A DNA stretch of 62,902 bases, filler included, from Globobulimina sp. (lineage: Eukaryota), in the NCBI GenBank assembly GCA_003354225.1. It is 38 parts of 38 records of this genome, joined end to end, with 100 filler letters (N's around TTAATTAATTAA, not from the genome) between each part and the next. Parts side by side here need not be neighbours in the genome. Positions count along the whole stretch, not along the records: positions 46,433 to 47,989 come from PIVH01014853.1; 37 more parts are not named here. One strand, given 5' to 3'. This document shows, piece by piece, positions 9,955 to 50,299 of this stretch. Under the pieces are notes generated by a model. That model searched no databases. It worked only from the letters and a program-made list of their open reading frames with translations, and had not been told where the DNA came from. Both the position numbers and the translations under genes were made by a program. How positions within the stretch are numbered: position 1 is the stretch's first letter; each line of letters opens with the position of its first letter.

Positions 9955-11486
9955 GTTATTGTTATTGCAGATATGGCAAAACAATAACCAAATGACTCAG
10001 ATGATGATGATATTGTCATTGCAGATATGATTGCACCAACCCCAGGCAACGCAGATAATGCCAACATAACCACCATCCCTCCATCCAACGCAGATTCTGA
10101 CACACAACCCGATGATGACCCGTACCTTAAATATTCAGCAGTTGACACGGCGCTGAAGTACGCAAACACAAATTCCGCGCCGGGATATGACGGAATCAAA
10201 TCAATCCATCTTAAACTGAACAATGACACTCTTTTTAATGTCTGGAACGATACTTATGTCATCCCATTCTACTGTCGGTTAGGATCCATCATCGCCATTC
10301 TAAAACAGCCTGATGGTGATCACAAATTTAATATCCCCATCAATCTTTGCAAAATAATCAAATCAATCTATAACAATTCACACTCAGCCATACTAAATAT
10401 CCCATTCATCACTCAATTATTTAAACTGCATAACGGTGTGTTACAGGGTTCGGTGCTAAGCCCCATCCTCTTTGCTGCTTTCATAAATGATATGATTGAC
10501 GAATTACAGGATTCGAACAAAGGCGCCAACTCTCCAGACCCTCACGAACAAATAGCCTGCATCTTCTATGCAGATGATGTCATATTATTGGCCAATACGG
10601 TCGAAAATCTCCAATTCCTTCTCAAAATTTGTGAGAAGCACAGCAAAATATGGGCGTATATGTTTAATGCCAAAAAATGCAAAACCATCATTTATAATGA
10701 CCCCAATCTCCTTTATAACAACACAAATCATTATAACACTGATCAAAAAAAACAAATCAATAATGAATATTACACCAAAATCAATTATAATAACTACTTA
10801 CCTGCACCAATGGTCCTATTACAACAATCCAAAAACAAACAGACATTGGCAGTTGACATCAACGGCCATATACGCAGTTACTACAATGCTGACATCCCTG
10901 AACAGCATCGCCAACTCTTCAAAGAACACTGTGAATACTACAGAAACAATATCAGCAATAAACCATTTCATATAATATGGGATAACATCATATTCGATCC
11001 GACCTGGGCCCCGGGATCCCTTCGCCCATAGAAAGATGGACTGTGTTGAAATTATCTTTCTATTGGAAACTAATACACAACAAACCAATATCATACATGC
11101 ATAAATGGTGTACCCTCCCCAATATAGCCACATACACACTTTATAAACAATACATTGATCTAAAAAATAAATGGCTGCCAATTGAACAGCAACTCAATGA
11201 AGACAACATCATAACATCTGATCCTTTCAATGAGGCATTAAATCCAACTGAATTGCGTCCATCTATTGTCCTAAAACAACACAAAGGCATTGTCCACTCC
11301 TTCAACAACTACCATCCATTAAGAATCCTCAAACACCATCTATCCGATTATAAAGCTATGAACACGTACGAGGTCCCTGACTTAGATGATTATGTTAAGG
11401 GTATTGATACGCCGAATTTCTCGTCTTTTTCCATTATTGTGTCCATAATATTTGATGTTTTTGTTTCGAGATCTTGTCCTAATTAA
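9955..11486 (+). mobile_element. Degenerate non-LTR retrotransposon reverse transcriptase
   Basis: APGYDGI, GVLQGSVLSP, YADD and FNAKKCK motifs. Part of RT domains 2-3 appears deleted, and the ORF is broken at about 11031. Confidence 0.85.
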
Positions 11487-13272: not shown

Positions 13273-14831
13273 TGCACAGCTAACACCACTTAACAAAGGT
13301 GACATTTATACAGTAATTTCACATTGTTTAGATGGCAGTCTTGGACATGCAGCCAGATTCACGGCTATGCAAACAATGACATATTTTCCAAATGTTTATG
13401 ACAAAGAGATTTGCGCAGTGGAGAAAGAACGTGTTATGCGCATTACAATCGGTAATTGGTCATCAACCACCACCAGAGATAACCAATGTCATCAACCGAG
13501 AAACACACAGAATGGAGGAAGTCATTTATATGATACAAATCGATCAAGAAATCCACCTGAGGTTGGTTATACATGTCATACATGTCATAAAGCAGGTCAT
13601 TGGCGTTCAGAATGCCCAGAAGAACAATTGGACGAAGAACAACAACCATTAGAGAGACAGTCAGCCTGGTCAACTTCATATGTGGGACTGACAGAAGCTA
13701 AAAAGAAAGTTACAATAACAAAGAAAGAAATTGCTAACATCGAATGGGAACTTGTAAGTTGCAATGGTATTATAGGTGAAGGACCAACAAATTACCTTGA
13801 TTATTTGCATCAATTTGCCATGGCCACAGGACGTGCATATCCGATTGAAAATTGGGATAATTTGCCAACAGCCAAACCGAACTTGGTCCCCAATTCGAAT
13901 TATCCAGACTTGAAACTCGATAATGAGAACTGGATTTACTGGAGCGAGATAGGACGACAAGAGGACGAAAGGTATGCAGTAAATAAAAATAGAATTGTAA
14001 TAAGAGAGACTAAGATACAAATAGATAAATACAATGTAGAGATGGCGAGACTCAAGAATGAGGCTACGGGAACATCAACAGTAGAATTAGAATTTTCTAG
14101 TCGTTCAGTAGAGTCTAATGGTAACAAGAAGACTTACAAGTTTGCTTCTTCAGGGCCAGGAGTATGTACAGCCCGGTCGAATCGGTTGAATGAAAATACA
14201 CTAAATGCAACTGTGTTGACAGCATTGCCTGAGGGCGAAATTGATTCTGATTCCGTTATTGTGTTACAACCCATGGAATTAGCACTTTATGTACTCCGGC
14301 AGCGTGTCCCAGTATGCAAATTAGCCGCATTAGCCGACACTGGCTCTAGACTTACTATCGCACAAAAATCAGTTTGCCAAATTGCTCGCATTCCTATGTC
14401 CGAATTGCGTAGTTCCCATCACAAACAAATTGTTGGTCTTGGGGGTTCGATTGATATTTTGGGCAAAGTTGTAATGACTTTTTCTATTGGTGATATGGTA
14501 GTAGAACAAATAGTACATGTTATACCCGACGACCCTCGTGTGCCACTGGTCATATTGGGCATAGACTTTTTCCAACGTCATAAAGTCGGATTCGATTTTG
14601 CGGAATCAACTATGGCATTGTACGGGCAAAAGCATCCACTGGGACGATACAGAGTTAAAGGTACAGCAGTTAGTTATGCAGCTGCATGGCCAGAGATGCC
14701 AGGACTTCAACAAGATGAACAAGACAGTGAAGAAGAGTCCGATCGAATGTCATCACAGGACTTGCACAGCATCAACCAGATAAAGAAAAATGCTTTAAAA
14801 ATAAGCGATCAAAGAAAGAAACAAAAACAGC
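13273..14831 (+). mobile_element. LTR retrotransposon (Ty3/gypsy-like) gag-protease region
   Basis: Zinc knuckle CHTCHKAGHWRSEC; aspartic protease ALADTGS...ILGIDF. Confidence 0.8.
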
Positions 14832-21465: not shown

Positions 21466-21767
21466 NNNNNNNNNNNNNNNNNNNNNNNNNNNNNNNNNNN
21501 NNNNNNNNNTTAATTAATTAANNNNNNNNNNNNNNNNNNNNNNNNNNNNNNNNNNNNNNNNNNNNTCAGTGGTGTTATTGATGTTGAAATTCCAATTCAA
21601 TTTATTCTAATTATAATACAAACATATTTTCTATTTCTAATATTAAATATTCGTCATTTGAGACTTATGTCCTTAAAACAATGTTTGTATAAACTTACGT
21701 TTGAACAAATTCTTAAAAACGTAGATTATATTATTCAAATAAGCTGAAACCTTTTCATCTATAAAAC

Positions 21768-22660
21768 ATGTCGACCACCCAACGTTTATCAGCCAGCAAA
21801 TTAAAAGAATTGGAAGCAAAGTTTGCTTCCATTTTGATTGTATCTTCTCTACTCTCAAAACGTGGAATAGCATCAACTATTTCAAATCTTAACAAACAAG
21901 TTTCTAAAATGTGTAATAATAAAGAATTGACTTTGACGGATTTACAAAGCATTCATAATATCATACCATCTCTTTGCTGGATTAAACCGGTTATACCAAC
22001 GGATGAAATACAAATTATTTATGATAATAACAACACAGCTGATGACAATAACGATTGCTATCAACTTACATTTTCTTTTCCAATCACACCCAATAATATT
22101 GGCATGTTACTGAATAAATTTAAAAAGGCAATCTCAAGCAAAAAGAGAAAATTCTCCCAAAATAACGAGAATTCCAACAAACATAAAAAAAAACGCAAAT
22201 TGAATGACGATATCGATATTGAATTGAATTTAAAAGCATTGCCTCCCAAAGATATCTCAAAAGCATCCAAGAAATTAAAACAAGTCAACTTTAATCCATT
22301 AACCTTCATCCAACAAAGCAAGAATTTTATATTTTGGTCTGATGGGAATATCGTATCACATAAATTATTACCATCAAAATTACCAAAATATGACACCTTA
22401 CAACTTACAAAAAACAACAACAACAACAACAATGCGCCAACACCCATTCGTATCACACAAATTCCATCCATTTTAATCTCAACTTATAACAGAAAGAAAA
22501 ACATTGACATTTTAAATAAATTATACTCGCATCAAAGCAGTGCAATTTCTTCCATTTGTAAGGGATATCACAACATCATAGCAACATCAACTGATAGTGG
22601 GAAGTCATTAATTTATAACGTTTGCGTGTTATCCTACATTTTGAACAATATAAAAACTAG
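21768..22660 (+). CDS. Hrq1/MrfA-like DEAH helicase, N-terminal part (truncated by chimeric junction)
   Basis: KLYSHQSSAI..IIATSTDSGKSLIY (Q motif and motif I). Confidence 0.7.
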
Positions 22661-22661
22661 C

Positions 22662-23123
22662 TCTTTCTTTAGGCTCTTAACGTTTCCTATTAAAGGGTGG
22701 TTCTACCTAGGCTCCCTTCGCTCCACGGACGTTACTCCGCTTCATCACTACTATGGGCCATCTGACTCCCTGCCTTAAAACCTTCTCAGGTTCCTCGCTT
22801 TTATACTTGTCACCTGATACTTCATCCTTGAAGAGCCGGCAGGGTCTCCCACGTTCATCTAATTACTTTAGTTGCATGCCATGCTCTCTGACTCCGGAGA
22901 TGCCTATCTCTTCTTCCCTGTATCGTTAAGATAGATATTGTCTTCGCATATGTTCCGAACATCTCGACCATCTCTCATAATCCCCATAACGGAGCTCTAT
23001 CACTTCAGCCTTCCGGCTTACGGCCTACAACCTCCCTGTCTACGCTTAGCCATAACTGTTACCAGTTACCACTCAAGACTCGGTAGTAATGTATTGGGTC
23101 TATACTTTTTACATGGATCTATC
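22662..23123 (-). mobile_element. Bacterial-type group II intron, 5' RNA domains I-III (partial)
   Basis: Minus strand has CCGAG..GGTAAC..AAGCGTAGACAG, GAACGTGGGAGACCC and GGAGTCAGATGGCCCATAGTAGTGATGAAGCGGAGTAACGTCCGTGGAGCGAAGGGAGCC, typical of DI to DIII. Confidence 0.85.
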
Positions 23124-33171: not shown

Positions 33172-34012
33172 TAGAAAGTTTTGTGTTGGGACAGGATGAG
33201 CTCCAGAGCCAAACACCACCAGCTTGTGTTGTTGCTTGATTATATACAATAGTGTTATTAGCATACGCTCCATCTGAGTTATAAAAAGAAATTCCTCCTC
33301 CCCATGTTGCATGATTATGAGCTACAACATTCCTTTCAAAAATAAATTCGCCAGCATTGAAACTGTCCGTTCCCCCACCATGAACACCTGCTACATTATG
33401 TATGATAATATTATTACGTATTACAGGGGAAGACTGACTATATATTGCTATTGCTCCAGCATCTTCTTCAGCGAAATTATATGCTAATGTAGAATTAACA
33501 ATTTCGGGGTGAGTATTAAAACATCCTATTCCACCTCCTCGGTATGCATTGTTATGTTGAATTTCGCAATTGCTTATAGTAATTGAAGCATTCGGAGATG
33601 CATAGCACAAAATTCCACCACCAGCATATTCAGGAAAACTTGACGAACCCAAATCAGTTAATCCATAACTTACGATGCAATAATCAAGTATGGAAGTTTC
33701 ATTCGTTCCCAGGAACCTGATTCCATGCCATCGATTATTAGTATCTACAGCTGTAAAAAGGATCTTGTCTGTTTCATTTCCTTCAGCCAATAATGATCCT
33801 TCTACAATAAACTTAAACCATCCGTTAAATTTGACTTGTACACCGGGCTCCACAATTAAAGATGTGAGTGGAATAATAGTAATTTCTCCGTTAACGATAT
33901 AGGGTGACCCAGAAAGGGTCCATGTTCCAGAAACAGGCCCCGGAGGGACTTGCGTTTGGGCAAAACTTAAAAGTGGAACCGTCATGATGATAATTAGTAG
34001 AATTTTTTTCAT
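33172..34012 (-). CDS. Secreted Bacteroidota-like right-handed beta-helix protein (3' partial)
   Basis: Signal peptide MKKILLII..SFAQ, VSGTWT..SPY and repeated N-A..GGGI units. Confidence 0.8.
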
Positions 34013-34276
34013 AATATCTATTTTTATGATTAAAGTTTCCAGGCTTGAATTTTTTGAGATTATTAATACATTGATTTTCAATGTTCAAGCACAATGTAAA
34101 ATAACTACAAATTTACCATGGGTACATAGTAAGATCGTAGCAATCTATGGTAAATCCGGAAGGAAAATTGTAGACTTCTGGTATATAATATGAATCTTAT
34201 AAATATTCAGATAAGTTTTGGATTTCCAGAAGTTACCATCAACACGACACTTTAAGATTCATTTTTATTAAATCTT

Positions 34277-43018: not shown

Positions 43019-45064
43019 NNNNNNNNNNNNNNNNNNNNNNNNNNNNNNNNNNNNNNNNNNNNTTAATTAATTAANNNNNNNNNNNNNNNNNNNNNNNNNN
43101 NNNNNNNNNNNNNNNNNNTTGGACTTGATCACAGTCTGTCACATCTTTGAAAGATATGTCAAGCGCATGAGAAGCTGATTTCGCCCAGAAGTATGCAGCT
43201 TTGTTGATTGCCTGTGTTCGGGCAAGAATCGGATGTCGATTAAAGGGCATAAAAACAGGATGCTCAATTGTTACTGAAAATGATTACTATATACATTTTT
43301 TGGTATATTAAAGAACTAATGCACTATTCAGGAGGTAGTGTGAGAAAATTGAAGCACAAATGGAATTTGCGAGTCATCAGGATATGATAATAAAACAACT
43401 CCTCAGCTGTAGTTGGTTACATCATTATAATATAATTTGAAAAAGGTTTTGTGGTATAAAATACCAATGTAGAATAAAAGGAAAAAGTTAATAGGTGGAG
43501 TACGCCTTCACAAAAGTATAAAATAAACAGATATTTTAAAAATACCGACTGTATGCGATGATAACATTTTAAAACCAAATGGTTGTCTCAAAATTTCAAA
43601 TCCAGCGCTTAGTTCTTTTCTGAGGGGGCATAGAAATGTTTTCTCCTGTCTGTACCATATGGTTTTCATAACCACTGAATGTTTTGAATGTTTCACATAT
43701 CTGAAGAACAAAGATAGCAAATTAATACAGTTATTGTCCAGATTTTTTACAAATGATATACCTTTGAACCAAATTGTGAAGCCTGTCATAGAAATTACCA
43801 TAGACGCCAGGTCTTGTAACAGAATTGAGCAACAGAGTCAATCCAAAACGAAAAGAATTAATTTTCGATAATATCGACTCTGTGTCTAAAAGAATGTTTT
43901 GAAATAGATTGCAAATACCTTCTCGTTGTTATTGACCATCATAATTACCTCCAAAAGAAGCTCTCAATTGCTTTGTTCGCCTTTTATGATGAAGTACCAT
44001 CGATCTTTTCACACCACTTGAGCTATAATCCCTGTATGACTCTGGGATAACGGCAGTTGGTGAAGGGGAATGATCTATTACAGGATAAAATGTTTCCTCA
44101 ATAGGACATTTTCCCAATAAATGTTCAACCCAGGTCAAAGGATCTCTTGTTCTAAAAATATAATATATGTCTGGCTTCATGTCTCATATATAAAGAAAAA
44201 GAAATTGCATTACAGAATTTAAACTAAAAGTTGAAATCATACCTGTTTTCCCAACATGTAAGCATTGAGGCAATATCAGAAGCAATTACAGCATCAAGCA
44301 AGGCATACATTATAGATGACATTGATGGGTTCTTTGATGCAAAATTTGTTCTAATATCGAACTGTTCCAGTCGAATTCCGCATTTTGCTGCCATAGACTT
44401 AAGTCCTTGTCCGACTCCGCCTTAAAATAAAATCAATTTTTATAATATTCAATTCCTGAAATGATTTGATTGTTTGTATTGAAACGTCGTACTGTTCAAC
44501 TGGTATACACATGATGAATTGCTTTTTAATACCTATACGACCAAGATGATTATTTTCACCATCCTCATCAATGTTGAATCCAAGGCTCTCTGCCGAAAGA
44601 TTAATCTCTATCCACCCAACAACATCGATACCATATTGAGACAACAATGGAACAGTATCACTTTGAACGTTGCTGNNNNNNNNNNNNNNNNNNNNNNNNN
44701 NNNNNNNNNNNNNNNNNNNTTAATTAATTAANNNNNNNNNNNNNNNNNNNNNNNNNNNNNNNNNNNNNNNNNNNNAGTCGTTTGTCGTGAGGTAGATTGG
44801 ATAATTCCTGTTGTAACTGTAGAGTCAAATATATTGTCTGGATGTAAACAGCAGCAATTACTTGCAAATGCATATTCTGTTTCCAAATCTGAAGTCGCTG
44901 TGCCCATTGTTTAAATATACTTTTTGTAGTCTCCTTGTCGAAAGTGTTAAAAAATCTTTGTGTTTCACGAATAGCTTATTAAAAAAGTCAGTTGTTATTA
45001 TTTTACACAAAAGTTATGGCTGATATTACAACTCCGACAATCAATTTTCGGCGTTTAATCTTAG

Positions 45065-46332
45065 CTATTTTTTAAGCGCAATTATCTTGATTCGAAACGA
45101 ATTCCATTGTTTGCATGTCTTTAATTGTAACGTTGCACGTTGATCCTCGACAAAACTGATGACTTTAGCAATATTTACACCATTCCCATCACTGACATCA
45201 TTTAATATTATCATATCAGAATCATCCATCTCCACATTTATTTGTTTCAATGCTGAAATAAATGTCTCCTTTCCCAAACACCCACTCTTGTCCTTATCAA
45301 ATTGTTTCAATATTTTCGACAATAAACCGCTATTAATATGCAACGATTTCCTTCTCTGCCGAACTTGATTTGCTTCCCTTTCCGTCTCAACAGGATTAGT
45401 AATAGTAATCCCCGCAGACAATGACGGTGAGCGACTATGTTTCCGTGGCAAGTCAGCGGGCTGTTCGTGTAATTGAGTGTCGGGAAGAAGGAAAAAGTCT
45501 GGCAAATGGTCCTGTGGCGAAGGCGAATCACCAGGCGAACGCGGTACGGCTAAATGCAAAGATCCCGATGACGTCCTTCTGTGCGCATGTCGCGAAACTA
45601 TTTATTATGTTATATTAAAATTATTGGTTTAACGTACGTTCTACTAAAAAAACACAAAAAAAAGTCAAGAATAAAACAAATCACACGGAACTATGTAATA
45701 TATCTTCATTCACTTCCACCGCCTTCGGATTTATCATTCTTGCCTTGTCGTTCAAAAACTGAATACGTGCAATCAATGCATTTTGTTTCCTCTCTAAATC
45801 ATCATACATCGGTCCAAGATGTTTGTCGATCGCTTCACTCTCTAATTCCACACCGTATTGTTTCGCAGTCGACTGCACAGACTCGGCAATCTGCGCCAAA
45901 CTCGCAAATACATCGTCATATTGTTTGTTCAACGCAACAATATCGACCACACCCTCACTCTCACTCAGATCCACTTTACTTTTTACGCTATGCAACACCT
46001 CCAAACTGACACCTTTTTGCTTGGCCAATATCTCTAATCGTTTTCGTGTTTTATGAATATCTGATAATAATTCTAATTGCCGCTGTTCCAATGCTTGCGG
46101 AGTGATACTAACATTTACATCTTCCGACTGTTTCTGCATTATTATATCGCCGGACTTTAAATAATTTTGCAAATCCGTCTCAGATTGCCGCCGTGCGGAC
46201 GCATTGATATCAGATACGACATTTACGTCTAAATTGATAATACTCGCAATGTCATGCAACGAAGCCAAGGTTGATAGTTGTCGTTGCTTCAATTTTTGCA
46301 GATTTTGCGGTAAAAACTTGTCCGTTTGTTTT
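45065..46332 (-). CDS. Coiled-coil protein with C-terminal EF-hand (5' partial); probable intron 45598-45691
   Basis: FDKDKSGCLGKETF EF-hand. A GTTCCG..AATAG phase-1 intron joins ORFs 45681-46292 and 45065-45559. Confidence 0.6.
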
Positions 46333-46837
46333 NNNNNNNNNNNNNNNNNNNNNNNNNNNNNNNNNNNNNNNNNNNNTTAATTAATTAANNNNNNNNNNNN
46401 NNNNNNNNNNNNNNNNNNNNNNNNNNNNNNNNCTATTAACAATAGCACCACTACATTGGACATTTTTTTTGGTTGCGTTTCAAAATATCTTCCGGCAGAC
46501 ATCGAGAGAAGGACTAGAAACATAGGTTGTCCTGAGCGTCCGGGTATACGTCATGGGTCAAATCCAACCAATGTTGAATCACGACAAAAATTATTATGGG
46601 GCCGCTGTCAAACGACAAATCGATACATACCCCGGTTTCAAGGAAACGACATTCGGATACAGTTTTAAAGTAAGAAGTTAGGAAAAGAATAGAAACTTTT
46701 AGTAAATTAAACAAATATAATTATTAAAAGGCAGAAAAGTAATAATAGAAGGTCGGTAAATAACGCTCTTATAAATAGAAATAATTTAAATTAACGTATT
46801 TGATAGTTAAAACCAAACATAGACGATAATAGTAGGA

Positions 46838-46929
46838 AAAAATTGAGTTTCGGTCCTTATTTCTTGACCCAATTTTTACCGTATATGATTTATTGGCAGG
46901 ACCATCTTCAGAAGAAACCAATAAATCAT
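46838..46929 (-). ncRNA. Non-circularly permuted hammerhead ribozyme, copy 2; predicted cleavage after the C at 46866
   Basis: Minus strand: ATGATTTATTGG TTTCTT CTGAAGA T GGTCCT G CCAATAAATCAT ATACGGT AAAAATTGGGT C AAGAAA TA AGGACC GAAA CTCAATTTTT. All four helices pair. Confidence 0.9.
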
Positions 46930-47183
46930 TTATAAAGCCATGTACTACCTACCGTACATGAATAATAATATATAGACCACTGAATAAATAAACTAACTGT
47001 TATGCTATCAGTAGCATGTCTTTTACTAGTGGCCAATTCCTTTCTGCTTGGACCAAATCCACGTTGACCACCACGTCCACTCGGACCCCCACGTCCACCA
47101 CGTCCACTCGGACCACCCCGTCCTCTTGAACCACCGCCACCACGGAAATCCGTACCACGATTGCCTCTGCCACCACGAGCCAT
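46926..47183 (-). CDS. RGG/GR-rich ORF start, preceded by a 5' UTR intron (47189-47274); possible donor at 46997
   Basis: MARGGRGNRG...RGGRGGPSGRGG. A GTGAGT...TTTTTAG intron ends 5 nt before the ATG. Confidence 0.6.
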   Translation of the reverse strand: MARGGRGNRGTDFRGGGGSRGRGGPSGRGGRGGPSGRGGQRGFGPSRKELATSKRHATDSITVSLFIQWSIYYYSCTVGSTWLYK

Positions 47184-47467
47184 TGTTCCTAAAAAAACAG
47201 CAAAAGAGGAGCCAGCCAGAAGAGTTCAGAAAAATTAGAAAATTAAACAGATTAAAGTAGACTGAATTACTCACCGCAAGACTTTATTTTCCTGTCATTC
47301 TTTAAGCAACTGGATTTGCATAATAATCATAATTTATGCCAGTGATAACCAAATTTATTTATCAATCCAAGTCCCTAGTCCAAATAATCAGGCCATGCTG
47401 TAAATTCGCCCATGTGGCTGTGTATTCGTATAGGCAGCCAAGACGCCAGATGACGCCAAAGTGAATA

Positions 47468-47746
47468 TTAAACAACTGGTTTGCCCTGTAGAGATACACC
47501 CCAGCTATGTGTATCGGCAACATTTGCTATATGCTTATTTAGCATATAATTAGACTACTGGTTAGGCCATTAAGAGATACATTCCCAGCAAAATGTATCG
47601 GCAATGAAACGGTATCGCTAAAAATAGCGTTAATTAAACAACTGGTTATGCCATTGGTATATACACACCCAGCAATGTGTATTGGCGGTAATTAAACAGC
47701 TGGATGCTATAGGATAAAGTACACCCCCAGCTAGGTGAACCAGCAG
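47468..47746 (-). ncRNA. Four tandem ~54-nt pseudoknot RNA motifs (47692-47746, 47634-47688, 47550-47604, 47468-47520)
   Basis: Each copy: P1, P2 hairpin with loop ending GCTGGG, 7-9 nt bulge, P1', then CCAGY..TYTAA. Compensatory changes between copies. Confidence 0.8.
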
Positions 47747-47774
47747 GTACTGTGTAAAACGGTTAGGTATGTCA

Positions 47775-47989
47775 TTATTTGGTAAAGGTGCAAATAAACT
47801 TTGCAATGTTATTTTTATCCGTTAGACCATATTTAAGTAATTGCATTTTATGCTTTTCATAAAATTTAAATGAGCAAGCGATTAAATCATATCTATTAAA
47901 TCCATTAATAATCAAACTGAGAAAAATTTCTCTATTCCTGGCTATAAGATCATTAAGACGATTGCAAATCCTAAGAAATCGCAGCAACT
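47775..47989 (-). mobile_element. C-terminus (RT thumb) of a Penelope-like retroelement with C-terminal RT (Naiad/Chlamys-like)
   Basis: (Q)LLRFLRICN..D...R....L..NGF....L...FKFY..H...L.KY resembles the PLE thumb consensus (SQLxRYxRxC). The ORF stops with no downstream GIY-YIG domain. Confidence 0.7.
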
Positions 47990-48521
47990 NNNNNNNNNNN
48001 NNNNNNNNNNNNNNNNNNNNNNNNNNNNNNNNNTTAATTAATTAANNNNNNNNNNNNNNNNNNNNNNNNNNNNNNNNNNNNNNNNNNNNGTTTTTCTTTG
48101 TTGTTTTCGTGTGATTGCATTTGCTTTACATTGTACGAATGGTTTGAGCTTAATCTATTTAATTAAATTCATGGATACCATAGTTTTAAATGGTTCTTTC
48201 TCCTAAAAAGTTAATTCATATTTGGCAGTATCATAGTTATTGTTAGTGACATGACGTTACCTCTCCTAGAAACTAACACCAATACAAAATTAAATTATGA
48301 CAACAATTATCTACTTTCCTCATTAGACTATGTCCAACTAACGGTTTTTTGAAACGTTAACTTTTAGTGTTAACTTATCTTTAAGAGGATTGCTTGCCAG
48401 CTGCGTGGATTAATAATTTGTCTTCATAGTATGTCCTCAGCTGTTTCTCTGTCTGGTTTATAATTCATTTGAAAAATAAACCTCCACATAAAAAATCAAT
48501 AATGGTAAATGCAATAAAAAT

Positions 48522-48590
48522 GGTCGCATAGCGCTCAAGCAGAGCATTGGATCAATCCAGAAGATTCAGGTTCAAATCCTGAGGCGACAG
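48522..48590 (+). pseudogene. Degenerate tRNA-like sequence (tRNA pseudogene or SINE head)
   Basis: Perfect T arm TCAGG-TTCAAAT-CCTGA, acceptor core GTCGC/GCGAC and anticodon stem TTGGA/TCCAG, but only a 4-nt anticodon loop. Confidence 0.7.
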
Positions 48591-49410
48591 CGATATCGAT
48601 TTGGATGCAATGCCGCCTATTCAGAAGATTGACATTAATCGAAAGCTATTCAAACAAACATAAAATTTACAATGCATCAATATTTTACAAAATATATTGT
48701 TTATACCTATCCAAACAAAACAAACAGGCACAAGCCGTCATCACTGAAAAAATAAAAAACGCAAACTCAATTTAACCAATAATGCAGTAACTACATTTAA
48801 CTGTTACTTTTTCCGTATTTGTAGTATATTTAGCTTTATCCCATTCATAATCATTATATTTGTTTCCTAATGATTCTTTACAATCTACACCAGGCGCTAC
48901 GCACTCTTTTTTTGCATTGCTTGCATCCCAAACCACCTCTGCCATTCACATGAGAATTTAATCTCGTTGGAAAATGTACACAATTATTATCTGTCGAGCA
49001 TACTAAACATTGGAATTTATATTTTGCGGCATGTCCCATATAATTATCAACGGTAAATGACTCTTCATAACCAACAGTTTCTGCATTTTTCTTCATCAAA
49101 TCTGATAACATTGTATCAATTACTTTTTGTATTGTTTTTCCTACATTTTTTCGCAGAATATCGTCCTGTTTTACTAGATCTATGTGTCGGTATTTTCTCT
49201 AATGAGCAATTTAATCGTCGTTTTTTTTTTTGTTTTATTATTATCCATTTTTCTTTGCGATTTTGTACATATATAATACAGGCAAATAGAAATATGATTT
49301 TATTACAAAATAAATTCCTGAATTATTTGAAATATTTTCATTGAATACAACAATTTTGATGCGATTTCAATTTGAATAATCTCAATTTGAATAATGAATA
49401 GCGGTTCTTA

Positions 49411-49646
49411 TTGCATATATATATATATTATGGTGGCCGCGTGTATTGGTACCAAGAGTTTGCAAACACTGTGACGAGCTATATGTATTACGATGCGACC
49501 TGGAGATATTGGGTCATCCATTCACAATTTACATCCGATGAAACGCAATTTGATTTACGATGTCTTCATTGGGATGAATTTGAGCCATTTAATTGCAATG
49601 AATGGTATACTATCGACGGCAGTGTGGTTACTATGGATCGACAATG
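49411..49646 (+). CDS. Exon fragment of an extracellular repeat-domain protein
   Basis: YMYYDATWRYWVI..C..PFNCNEWY resembles YLYFDAFFGYWQI..C..PIDCNKWY in the 54867-56274 gene. Confidence 0.45.
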
Positions 49647-50299
49647 NNNNNNNNNNNNNNNNNNNNNNNNNNNNNNNNNNNNNNNNNNNNTTAATTAATT
49701 AANNNNNNNNNNNNNNNNNNNNNNNNNNNNNNNNNNNNNNNNNNNNTATGGATATTCAATAATTAAAGATATATATTTAAGTAAAGAGAATAGTATCAAG
49801 TTCAAGGTAATTAAACAATTATTTCCAATATTAACTTGTATTTATATTCAACGTATTGATAAAATTGAAAATAAGAGGAATGGCTATCAAACAATTGCAT
49901 CAATATTAATAACAGATGGGTTTTTATTGCAAATATTATCGTGTTTATCAAATAAAAATAATACATGGAAATGGATTGATATTTGGAATCCAAAAAATAG
50001 TATGAAATCATTAAATAAATTAATAAATAAACATTCAATCAAATATGCTAAATATAATTATCAATTAGATATTGAACAAAATAATCATCCTCGATATGGT
50101 CAATTTTATTCTTTTTGTGTGAATCCATCATCGGATACCAGCATAAACTTTTGAACTTTTGTTTCTATCGAGTGCAATTGAGTGATTTTTACTAATTATT
50201 CAGCTTTTTTTTTCAAACTAACTTCTATTTTCATCTCGATCATCCTTGCGTTAATTAAATAGCAATCGTACTTTTTTCATTTGAAAAGAAGACCTTCAA

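Follow-up and report, generated by a model that had tools for sequence, protein, structure and literature searches.

What is a tandem array of small pseudoknots doing on a short contig of a eukaryotic genome assembly? The question is raised by positions 47465-47746 of a 62,902-base stretch of the Globobulimina sp. assembly GCA_003354225.1 (hereafter the window), where four diverged units lie head to tail on the minus strand of contig PIVH01014853.1. The initial annotation, made from the sequence alone, had described them as covarying pseudoknots of an unrecognised motif and had offered three guesses as to their nature: an exoribonuclease-resistant RNA (xrRNA), a pseudoknot bound by a reverse transcriptase (RT), or a new ribozyme. 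We confirm that the four-unit pseudoknot-type repeat is real. Judged by the homology of the open reading frame (ORF) that ends shortly before it, the array is the start of the 3' untranslated region (UTR) belonging to a Penelope-like retroelement (PLE) of the Naiad/Chlamys type, and it is read on the minus strand like the ORF of the element. Its position, its repeat architecture, the covarying pairs, the strand bias and the occurrence of other diverged copies are direct observations. As to its role, we tentatively suggest, as a reading that may well prove wrong, a cis-acting RNA module of the 3' UTR that is recognised by the RT of the element and has been multiplied head to tail.

The window consists of 38 unrelated contigs of 1557-1559 bp each, ordered by length and separated by linkers of the form N44-TTAATTAATTAA-N44 (e.g. 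47990-48089). Because it is a concatenation of unrelated contigs, features on separate contigs cannot be read as neighbours, and the usable context of the array is contig 46433-47989 only (1557 bp).

Architecture and proposed fold of the repeated unit

The units are 56-58 nt long, with start-to-start distances of 84, 84 and 58 nt (repeat search; 4-copy families). The full period is 84 nt and is made up of a 57-nt unit and a spacer of about 27 nt that bears a hairpin; unit 2 directly abuts unit 1. The array is absent from the output of Tandem Repeats Finder, which has 6 rows within 45000-50000, none of them at the array. Three helices can be drawn in all four units: a basal helix P1 of 3-5 bp, the P2 hairpin of 7-8 bp, and a loop-tail helix of 5-7 bp in which the apical loop, through its GCUGG, is complementary to a downstream CCAGY.

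Unit 1 (u1, 47689-47746) begins 28 nt past the stop codon of the ORF. Its P1 is UGCUG/UAGCA, its P2 GUUCACC/GGUGUAC with one U-U mismatch, its loop UAGCUGGG and its tail CCAGCUG UUUAAUUA (71.0 bits with model R1), and no spacer hairpin follows it. In unit 2 (u2, 47631-47688; 78.9 bits) P1 is GCCA/UGGC and P2 AUACACA/UGUGUAU, and the loop UUGCUGGG and the tail CCAGUUG UUUAAUUA form a loop-tail helix that holds one U-U mismatch. Spacer 1 (47605-47630), with the 5-bp hairpin CGCUA/UAGCG (-5.9 kcal/mol), leads to unit 3 (u3, 47547-47604; 80.7 bits), which has P1 GCC/GGC, P2 GAUACAUU/AAUGUAUC, the loop UUGCUGGG and the tail CCAGUAG UCUAAUUA. Spacer 2 (47522-47546) forms the hairpin UAUAUGCU/AGCAUAUA (-4.9 kcal/mol), whose stem partly overlaps the tail of u3. 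It is followed by unit 4 (u4, 47465-47521; 72.4 bits), the last intact unit of the array, with P1 UUGCC/GGCAA, P2 GAUACAC/GUGUAUC, loop AUAGCUGGG and tail CCAGUUG UUUAAUAU. All of these features are on the minus strand. Checked unit by unit for segments and pairs, the four sequences read as the initial annotation had written them. The small hairpins that it had seen between some copies are also real: the two spacers have unrelated sequences, their hairpins occupy an equal position in the period, and only 6 of 500 (spacer 1) and 3 of 500 (spacer 2) mononucleotide shuffles fold as well.

Beyond u4 the repeat seems, on weak evidence, to run on in decayed form for two periods. The stretch 47290-47464 (minus strand) holds two probable relic periods of the same repeat, periods 5 and 6, which are in register with the array at a distance of 166 nt (2 x 83) from u4. 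The complementarity of P2 is gone from them; the second one retains CCAGUUGCUUAA. A copy of the tail with 1 mismatch is found at 47302-47313, and R1 scores 13.9 bits at 47299-47342 (E 0.53). When local alignments were compared with shuffles, the score of u2 with period 5 was reached by 6 of 300 and that of u4 with period 6 by 0 of 300, the other pairs being not significant. A possible relic of the 3' half of a unit, very weak (72% over 29 nt; R1 11.1 bits, E 2.5), lies at 46985-47017 on the contig and strand of the array, where the first coding exon of the RGG-rich gene described below ends. Inspection by eye also revealed an AAUAAA at 47354-47359 (minus strand), about 105 nt downstream of u4 within the decayed periods, a possible polyadenylation signal for read-through transcripts of the element.

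The four units were aligned with MAFFT (28 of 59 columns invariant, mean column identity 81%), and the alignment was scored for a structure composed of P1, P2 and the pseudoknot, comprising 18 pairs and 71 cells. Standard pairs were found in 93.0% of the 71 cells, as compared with 29.6-44.3% when the 3' partners were slid by 1-3 columns. Five pairs are altered on both sides, a number equalled by 10 of 500 shuffles, and the covariation score of 0.306 was equalled in 2 of 500. A misaligned 3' strand in P1 of u1 explains 2 of the 5 unpaired cells, and the genuine mismatches are the two U-U oppositions already mentioned, in P2 of u1 and in the loop-tail helix of u2. The compensatory change that had been claimed for P1 and P2 thus stands in the main, but P1 is only 3-5 bp long and P2 is not perfect in u1. 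Much the same can be said of the proposed pairing between GCTGG and CCAGY, which is interrupted in u2 but on the minus strand fills 27 of its 28 cells. This helix contains a both-sided switch, with A-U in u1 and u4 and U-A in u3.

The pairing also favours one strand, which is the sense strand of the neighbouring ORF. On the minus strand 66 of the 71 cells are paired, on the plus strand 58; the loop-tail helix is paired in 27 of 28 and 20 of 28 cells, respectively, being good on the minus strand and much poorer on the plus strand because seven of its 28 cells are G-U. The argument from G-U wobbles made in the initial annotation is therefore upheld. As to sequence conservation, 6 of 7 columns are invariant in the loop strand of the pseudoknot, 5 of 7 in its 3' strand and 5 of 8 in the A/U-rich tail. 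The least conserved part is junction J between P2 and P1, with 1 of 7 columns invariant. A UGUA that is invariant in all four units is situated inside a helix, in the 3' arm of P2.

On the 5' strand P1 and P2 are unbroken, with 0 nt between them, and together they comprise 11-12 bp; the partner strand of the apical loop begins 1-4 nt past the base of P1. Since a linker of 1-4 nt cannot span the stacked 11-12 bp of P1 and P2, P1 and the pseudoknot are sterically hard to accommodate together. In our model each module would be an H-type pseudoknot in which P2 is stem 1 and the pairing of (U/A)GCUGG with CCAGY(A/U)G (5-7 bp) is stem 2; 1-2 nt would make up loop 1 and about 15 nt loop 3, with a single G at the junction. 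P1 (3-5 bp) could arise instead, through pairing of a part of loop 3 with the 5' flank, and P1 and the pseudoknot would probably be alternative states. A conserved A/U-rich tail (GUUUAAUUA), predicted to be single-stranded, would come next and, in the full 84-nt period, would be followed by the hairpin of variable sequence. This steric clash, the 84-nt basic period, the decayed further units and the concatenated make-up of the window go beyond what the initial annotation had described.

Element context and further copies

The ORF next to the array (47778-47987, minus strand) consists of the last 70 codons of a partial retroelement ORF that is cut by the contig end; its stop codon, TAA, is at 47775-47777. 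The 70-aa sequence had no Pfam matches, and a word-indexed protein search was likewise empty. In an exhaustive phmmer search it matched P0004, a protein of 854 aa, with query residues 2-62 aligned to 784-844 (E 4.5e-5), and it also found P0005 and P0006, each with one C-terminal match. The other three of the six exhaustive matches, P0001-P0003, were discounted for matching in 5-14 stretches, P0003 being visibly internally repeated. By BLASTP the ORF is identical to residues 783-842 of P0004 at 24 of 60 positions (40%, E 4e-13). When the window was searched by tblastn with those 103 of the 105 retrieved proteins that exceed 400 aa, 7 members of the P0004 family (see below) matched, all solely at 47787-47987 and each with its own last 55-70 residues.

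P0004 defines a family of 100 proteins (E<=1e-5) bearing PF01541 and/or PF00078, whose contigs are about 2-7 kb long apart from three, of 11.7 kb, 28 kb and 1.4 Mb. In these relatives the GIY-YIG domain is N-terminal and the RT C-terminal: GIY-YIG is found at 91-178 of 975 in P0007, at 89-169 in P0010 (RT 719-811) and at 152-237 in P0030 (RT 647-854). An alignment of 12 family proteins, which describes the relatives only, contains an invariant CxC (C263 and C265), an invariant DK (D388, K389) as well as a C..C...H...H consensus surrounding the YxG motif. Pfam matched nothing in the first 124 aa of P0004, and a phmmer search of PDB sequences with P0004 gave 0 matches; the nuclease domain, which the relative P0007 carries, seems to be truncated in P0004. 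Two family members, P0008 and P0009, are deposited as hypothetical proteins of bacterial metagenome-assembled genomes (Pseudoalteromonas sp. and Mesoflavibacter sp.), which indicates eukaryotic contamination of those bins.

Craig et al. (2021) define a permuted Naiad/Chlamys clade of PLEs in which an N-terminal GIY-YIG domain is linked to a C-terminal RT, with a CxC motif in the linker, a DK(G) motif and a CCHH inside the GIY-YIG domain that is present in Naiad and absent in Chlamys (PMC8557442). By its homology the ORF described here is probably the C-terminal tail of a protein of this N-terminal-GIY-YIG/C-terminal-RT, Naiad/Chlamys type, and the Penelope-like context, at which the initial annotation had merely hinted, is established in this way. 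In the same paper the clade is reported to be without canonical hammerheads, which other PLEs have in pseudo-long terminal repeats near the 3' end (PMC8557442). Within the 1557 nt at hand, no canonical hammerhead was found in the terminal region. Naiads are further described there as inserting often at (TA)n, and some of them carry a selenocysteine insertion sequence (SECIS) just past the stop codon; non-autonomous Chlamys elements have 3' ends in common with autonomous ones and form head-to-tail multicopy insertions, and in some marine invertebrates the copy number of the clade runs to tens of thousands (PMC8557442).

Other versions of the locus were seen in sequencing runs. In run X1, which probably comes from the source sample, a single contig with 3 differences spans the flank 46663-47462, and the depth of this unique flank is 3.5-8.5, while 47574-47989, containing the end of the ORF and the units, is present in several diverged versions. 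Record 5 of this run has 9 listed changes within u1 and u2, of which 7 are at unpaired positions. The changes at paired positions turn a G-C pair into G-U (47699) and the U-U of u2 into U-A (47640), i.e. pairing is kept or gained. For 2 or fewer of the 9 listed changes to fall on paired positions, which make up 64%, the binomial p is about 0.013 by our own arithmetic. Another contig of run X1 contains a u3-spacer-u3 junction with an 84-nt period and a different, 24-nt spacer, which by eye forms a 7-bp hairpin. The depth of this junction, 29.3 as against 3.5-8.5 for the flank, indicates that module-only arrays exist elsewhere. In the marine metagenome run X2, 47742-47889 is present with 0 differences, and the contigs of runs X3 and X4 contained nothing aligning to the array contig.

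On the other 37 contigs of the window model R1 detected no further copy, its 7 remaining weak matches having E values of 1.2-9.6. Scans of viral contigs with a motif pattern returned 7 loci, all in a single phage coding gene that lacks the hairpin, and a second pattern returned none; a scan of metagenome contigs gave 2 single chance matches inside unrelated sequence, and scans of prokaryote genome contigs gave 0 and then 5 single chance matches. Protein-guided locus searches of viral contigs, made with the C-terminal alignment and with the alignment of 12 family proteins, both found no locus, and genome searches with P0008 were positive in 0 of 2 and 0 of 401 genomes.

The downstream gene and the other contigs

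Downstream of the array, 46926-47274 (minus strand) contains a putative 5'-UTR intron and an RGG-rich ORF. The intron would be 86 nt long, beginning with GUGAGU at 47274 and ending with a polypyrimidine tract and AG at 47189, and would be followed by an ATG at 47183. The RGG/RG-rich ORF begins MARGGRGNRG... and is followed by a GUUAGU resembling a splice donor; the splice sites are predicted from the sequence. The ORF has no Pfam match; it might encode a fibrillarin-, GAR1- or helicase-like N-terminus. It is probably a host gene's first coding exon and not a copy of the element, because tblastn reveals no PLE N-terminus downstream of the array on the contig and because the flank is single-copy in run X1. 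In the putative intron after this exon there is a repeated hairpin element (46838-46932, minus strand) with 15-nt arms that are 93% complementary. It occurs in several diverged versions in run X1, with a summed depth of up to 38, and it contains a CUGAAGA ... GGACC-GAAAC string, for which no Rfam hammerhead match was obtained.

The G+C content of the 38 contigs ranges from 0.28 to 0.49, and with this spread more than one organism may be present in the window. Long ORFs on other contigs match eukaryotic families (Oscp1, CDT1, Hsp70, a topoisomerase-II-type ATPase, a PRMT-like methyltransferase, a long terminal repeat (LTR) retroelement gag-protease and an RT). A gag-pol fragment with zinc-knuckle and aspartyl-protease at 13274-14830 (plus strand) and an RVT_1 reverse transcriptase at 9988-11028 (plus strand) are on separate contigs; the RVT_1 protein is unrelated to the Penelope-like family. 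At 33173-34084 (minus strand) an ORF combines a signal peptide of bacterial type with a right-handed beta-helix domain, which suggests an admixture of bacterial contigs in the assembly. Contig 21566-23123 shows an odd combination of a nuclear-type gene and an organellar- or bacterial-type intron piece: a CDT1-like ORF (21765-22775, plus strand) is accompanied on the opposite strand by a match to group II intron domains D1-D4 (RF02005, 125 bits, E 4.9e-35), which lies at the contig end (22882-23122, minus strand).

Known RNAs and possible roles of the module

The comparison with known RNAs was made with Rfam 15, whose 4227 models include the hammerhead, HDV-like (hepatitis delta virus-like), twister, twister-sister, pistol and hatchet ribozymes and curated families of viral xrRNAs and pseudoknots. 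At gathering score the whole window yielded the group II intron just mentioned and nothing else. At E<=10 the 1557-nt contig had 0 matches, and the 341-nt array had only a chance match to mir-492 on the plus strand, with 13.8 bits as against a gathering score of 76. A search of both strands for the hammerhead core CUGANGA ... GAAA located no CTGANGA within the array; the contig's sole CTGANGA is at about 46911, outside it. The view of the initial annotation that the motif does not correspond to the hammerhead, HDV, twister or pistol cores agrees with these results.

HDV-like ribozymes have the helix order P1, P2, P3-L3-P3', P1', P4, P2'. The nested double pseudoknot of this type did not fit when the helix order was compared by hand with the topology of the family: the units have no equivalent of P2 or P4. 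Units u2 and u3, though not u4, allow a 3-bp P3 immediately ahead of the CCAG strand. Several other candidates were rejected. A SECIS, a long stem-loop with an AUGA ... GA quartet, was ruled out as AUGA is present in 0 of 4 units, and a frameshift or readthrough signal was dropped because several stops follow in all frames. A box C/D or H/ACA small nucleolar RNA cluster was dropped for the lack of boxes and of a two-sided pocket, tRNA-like or Pol III boxes because no tRNA was found, and bacterial type III antitoxin repeats or CRISPR repeats because the contig is eukaryote-like, with spliceosomal-type signals. The array was not classed either with the non-LTR retrozymes, whose tandem monomers each bear a type I hammerhead and give rise to circular RNA, tandem monomers being present and the hammerhead absent. 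In the main texts of the literature searched, supplements excluded, no pseudoknot module or new ribozyme is described in Naiad/Chlamys tails. Consecutive small pseudoknots some tens of nucleotides past a stop codon recall the upstream pseudoknot domains in 3' UTRs of the tobamovirus type, but the array has another fold and no tRNA-like end, belongs to a cellular DNA element and has no Rfam match.

The RTs of non-LTR retrotransposons recognise RNA structures in the 3' UTR, as in R2, and in telomerase RNA a pseudoknot domain is bound by telomerase reverse transcriptase (TERT). The array shares with them a pseudoknotted RNA beside a single-stranded stretch at the 3' end of an RNA copied by an RT; it differs in that its modules are 57 nt long and tandem, have no sequence or model similarity to the two RNAs, and would be bound by the RT in our model. 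We suggest that the RT of the element would recognise the pseudoknot and would start target-primed reverse transcription from the A/U-rich tail, possibly at targets of the (TA)n type. Head-to-tail copying, which is typical of PLEs, would multiply the module inside the 3' UTR of the element and, elsewhere, as module-only 84-nt arrays, and the latter would parallel the retrozymes derived from hammerhead-bearing PLE ends. An RNA function, RT binding and priming are thus what we infer for the module. The reading is supported by the gathering of changes in unpaired parts, both among the units and in record 5, and by the decayed downstream periods, which show what the repeat looks like without maintenance.

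The array could instead be a neutral tandem repeat of the 3' UTR without RNA function, in which the youth of the copies, or template switching and gene conversion, keeps the palindromes intact. We regard this as unlikely on the whole, though to be taken seriously. Tandem repeats lengthen several Chlamys families, according to Craig et al. (PMC8557442). The units are 81% identical on average, and much of their pairing is then merely inherited; the composition of the array differs between the copies in run X1, as unequal crossing-over predicts, and the downstream units decay. Nested folding of the whole 291 nt is ordinary (a z-score of -1.58 for the minus strand and of -1.12 for the plus strand), as judged by a nested-only folding energy that is blind to pseudoknots. 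This last result also counts against the RT-recognised module that we propose, and so do several other points. In the nested minimum-energy fold of u1 and u4 the loop-tail helix forms a plain stem and P2 is displaced, i.e. there are competing folds. The statistics are thin: they derive from four paralogous units at one locus, whose kinship inflates significance in comparison with shuffles, and because the aligned units are related copies the shuffle controls may be exceeded without any structure. Compensatory changes in short palindromes can come from template switching at the DNA level without selection on an RNA. In record 5, 3 of 14 substitutions are unlisted and may lie in stems, and the record is possibly a graph chimera between units. 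The evidence for the module is limited to one locus on a short contig, where only 70 codons of this element copy are present, aligned to the C-termini of its relatives. A neutral origin nevertheless has to contend with the five both-sided pair changes, including the switch from A-U to U-A in the loop-tail helix, and with the concentration of changes in unpaired parts among the units and in the second copy. It also has to contend with the seven G-U cells that favour one strand (27 of 28 cells versus 20 of 28), where a process acting on double-stranded DNA predicts no preference, and with the three unrelated spacers that all form hairpins at an equal position. The compensatory changes, the G-U strand bias and the turnover of spacers with preservation of their hairpins are likewise left unexplained if the units are regulatory repeats acting as DNA, such as a promoter or enhancer of the pseudo-LTR kind for a downstream copy or for the RGG-rich gene, or if they are 3'-UTR sites for host proteins that bind single-stranded RNA. 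The terminal repeats of PLEs contain the promoter together with the start of transcription and a short intron in the 5' UTR (PMC8557442, PMC6765202), and a putative 86-nt intron and then an ATG occur downstream of the array; tblastn, however, shows no PLE N-terminus there, and the flank is single-copy in run X1. The tail contains CAACTG on the plus strand, and the 3' arm of P2 contains UGUA. The former resembles a Myb site and the latter a PUF/CFIm site, but the UGUA is inside a helix. Altogether, sites of this kind appear highly improbable to us.

Two further alternatives start, like the module recognised by the RT, from a functional RNA. In the dianthovirus/polerovirus-type xrRNAs a P1-P2 stem-loop is combined with a pseudoknot of 4-5 bp between the apical loop and sequence 3' of P1. 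P1 must unwind before the pseudoknot forms, a guanosine in J1/2 that is >97% conserved docks with the conserved loop segment L2B, and the plant xrRNAs occur at the start of 3' UTRs (bioRxiv 10.1101/2020.04.30.070631). The topology to which the initial annotation had pointed is indeed similar: the same elements follow in the same order, with the apical loop paired over 5-7 bp, a similar length, just 3' of P1. The distance from P1 to the end of the pseudoknot is about 48-51 nt, compared with 44 nt for the xrRNA of SCNMV (sweet clover necrotic mosaic virus), the array is likewise at the start of a 3' UTR, and the probable mutual exclusion of P1 and pseudoknot fits the need for P1 to unwind. By analogy, P1 would form first, and an advancing 5'-3' exonuclease would unwind it and then be blocked by the ring formed by the apical loop and the 3' flank, leaving stable 3' fragments made up of modules. 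Membership in the family is another matter: because the J1/2 guanosine and L2B are without counterpart, the motif does not belong to it. On the 5' side P1 passes into P2 without an unpaired nucleotide, nearly the whole apical loop (8-9 nt) is taken up by the pseudoknot strand, a bulge of 7-9 nt is present on the 3' side only, and P2 is longer (7-8 bp). Moreover, the array is part of a cellular retroelement and not of an RNA virus, has no Rfam match, and a stable 5'-truncated RNA would be of no obvious benefit to an autonomous element. A role in stalling exoribonucleases or stabilising the RNA therefore seems improbable. A novel self-cleaving ribozyme, standing in for the hammerhead and cutting multimeric transcripts to 84-nt or element-length units in the way of the hammerheads of canonical PLEs and retrozymes, would suit the location of the array, which is the canonical hammerhead site of PLEs in a clade reported to be without hammerheads (PMC8557442, PMC6765202). 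It would also suit the compact pseudoknotted fold, several small ribozymes being of this kind, and the constant 84-nt head-to-tail arrays, including the deeper module-only junctions, which recall the retrozyme arrays derived from PLE ends (bioRxiv 10.64898/2026.07.22.740005). The likeness to the hammerhead modules of PLEs and to retrozyme arrays extends to the placing of a structured module after the PLE ORF, to its head-to-tail order and to module-only arrays elsewhere (PMC8557442, PMC6765202, bioRxiv 10.64898/2026.07.22.740005). However, the array has no Rfam ribozyme match and no CUGANGA/GAAA core, its pseudoknot is of the hairpin type with a helix order unlike that of HDV, retrozyme monomers are longer than its 84-nt period, and its host element belongs, by homology, to the clade with N-terminal endonuclease. 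That clade, reported without canonical hammerheads, proliferates well in their absence (PMC8557442). Ribozyme cores are usually the most conserved unpaired nucleotides, whereas junction J is the most variable part of the units (1 of 7 columns invariant), and new classes of ribozymes are rare a priori. Self-cleavage is in our estimation quite improbable. More generally, a new class of small RNA could replace the hammerhead in Naiad/Chlamys elements, as a ribozyme or equally as the first xrRNA-like RNA borne by a cellular retroelement, with P1 and the pseudoknot as its states; this we consider doubtful.

PLEs are a major class of retrotransposons, and their RTs are the nearest relatives of TERT (PMC8557442). 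At the position that the hammerhead occupies in other PLEs, the array described here offers a concrete RNA, a candidate for being bound by the RT and for priming as well as for resistance to exonucleases or for cleavage. Should related elements carry the module too, module-only arrays would mark the non-autonomous passengers of those elements.

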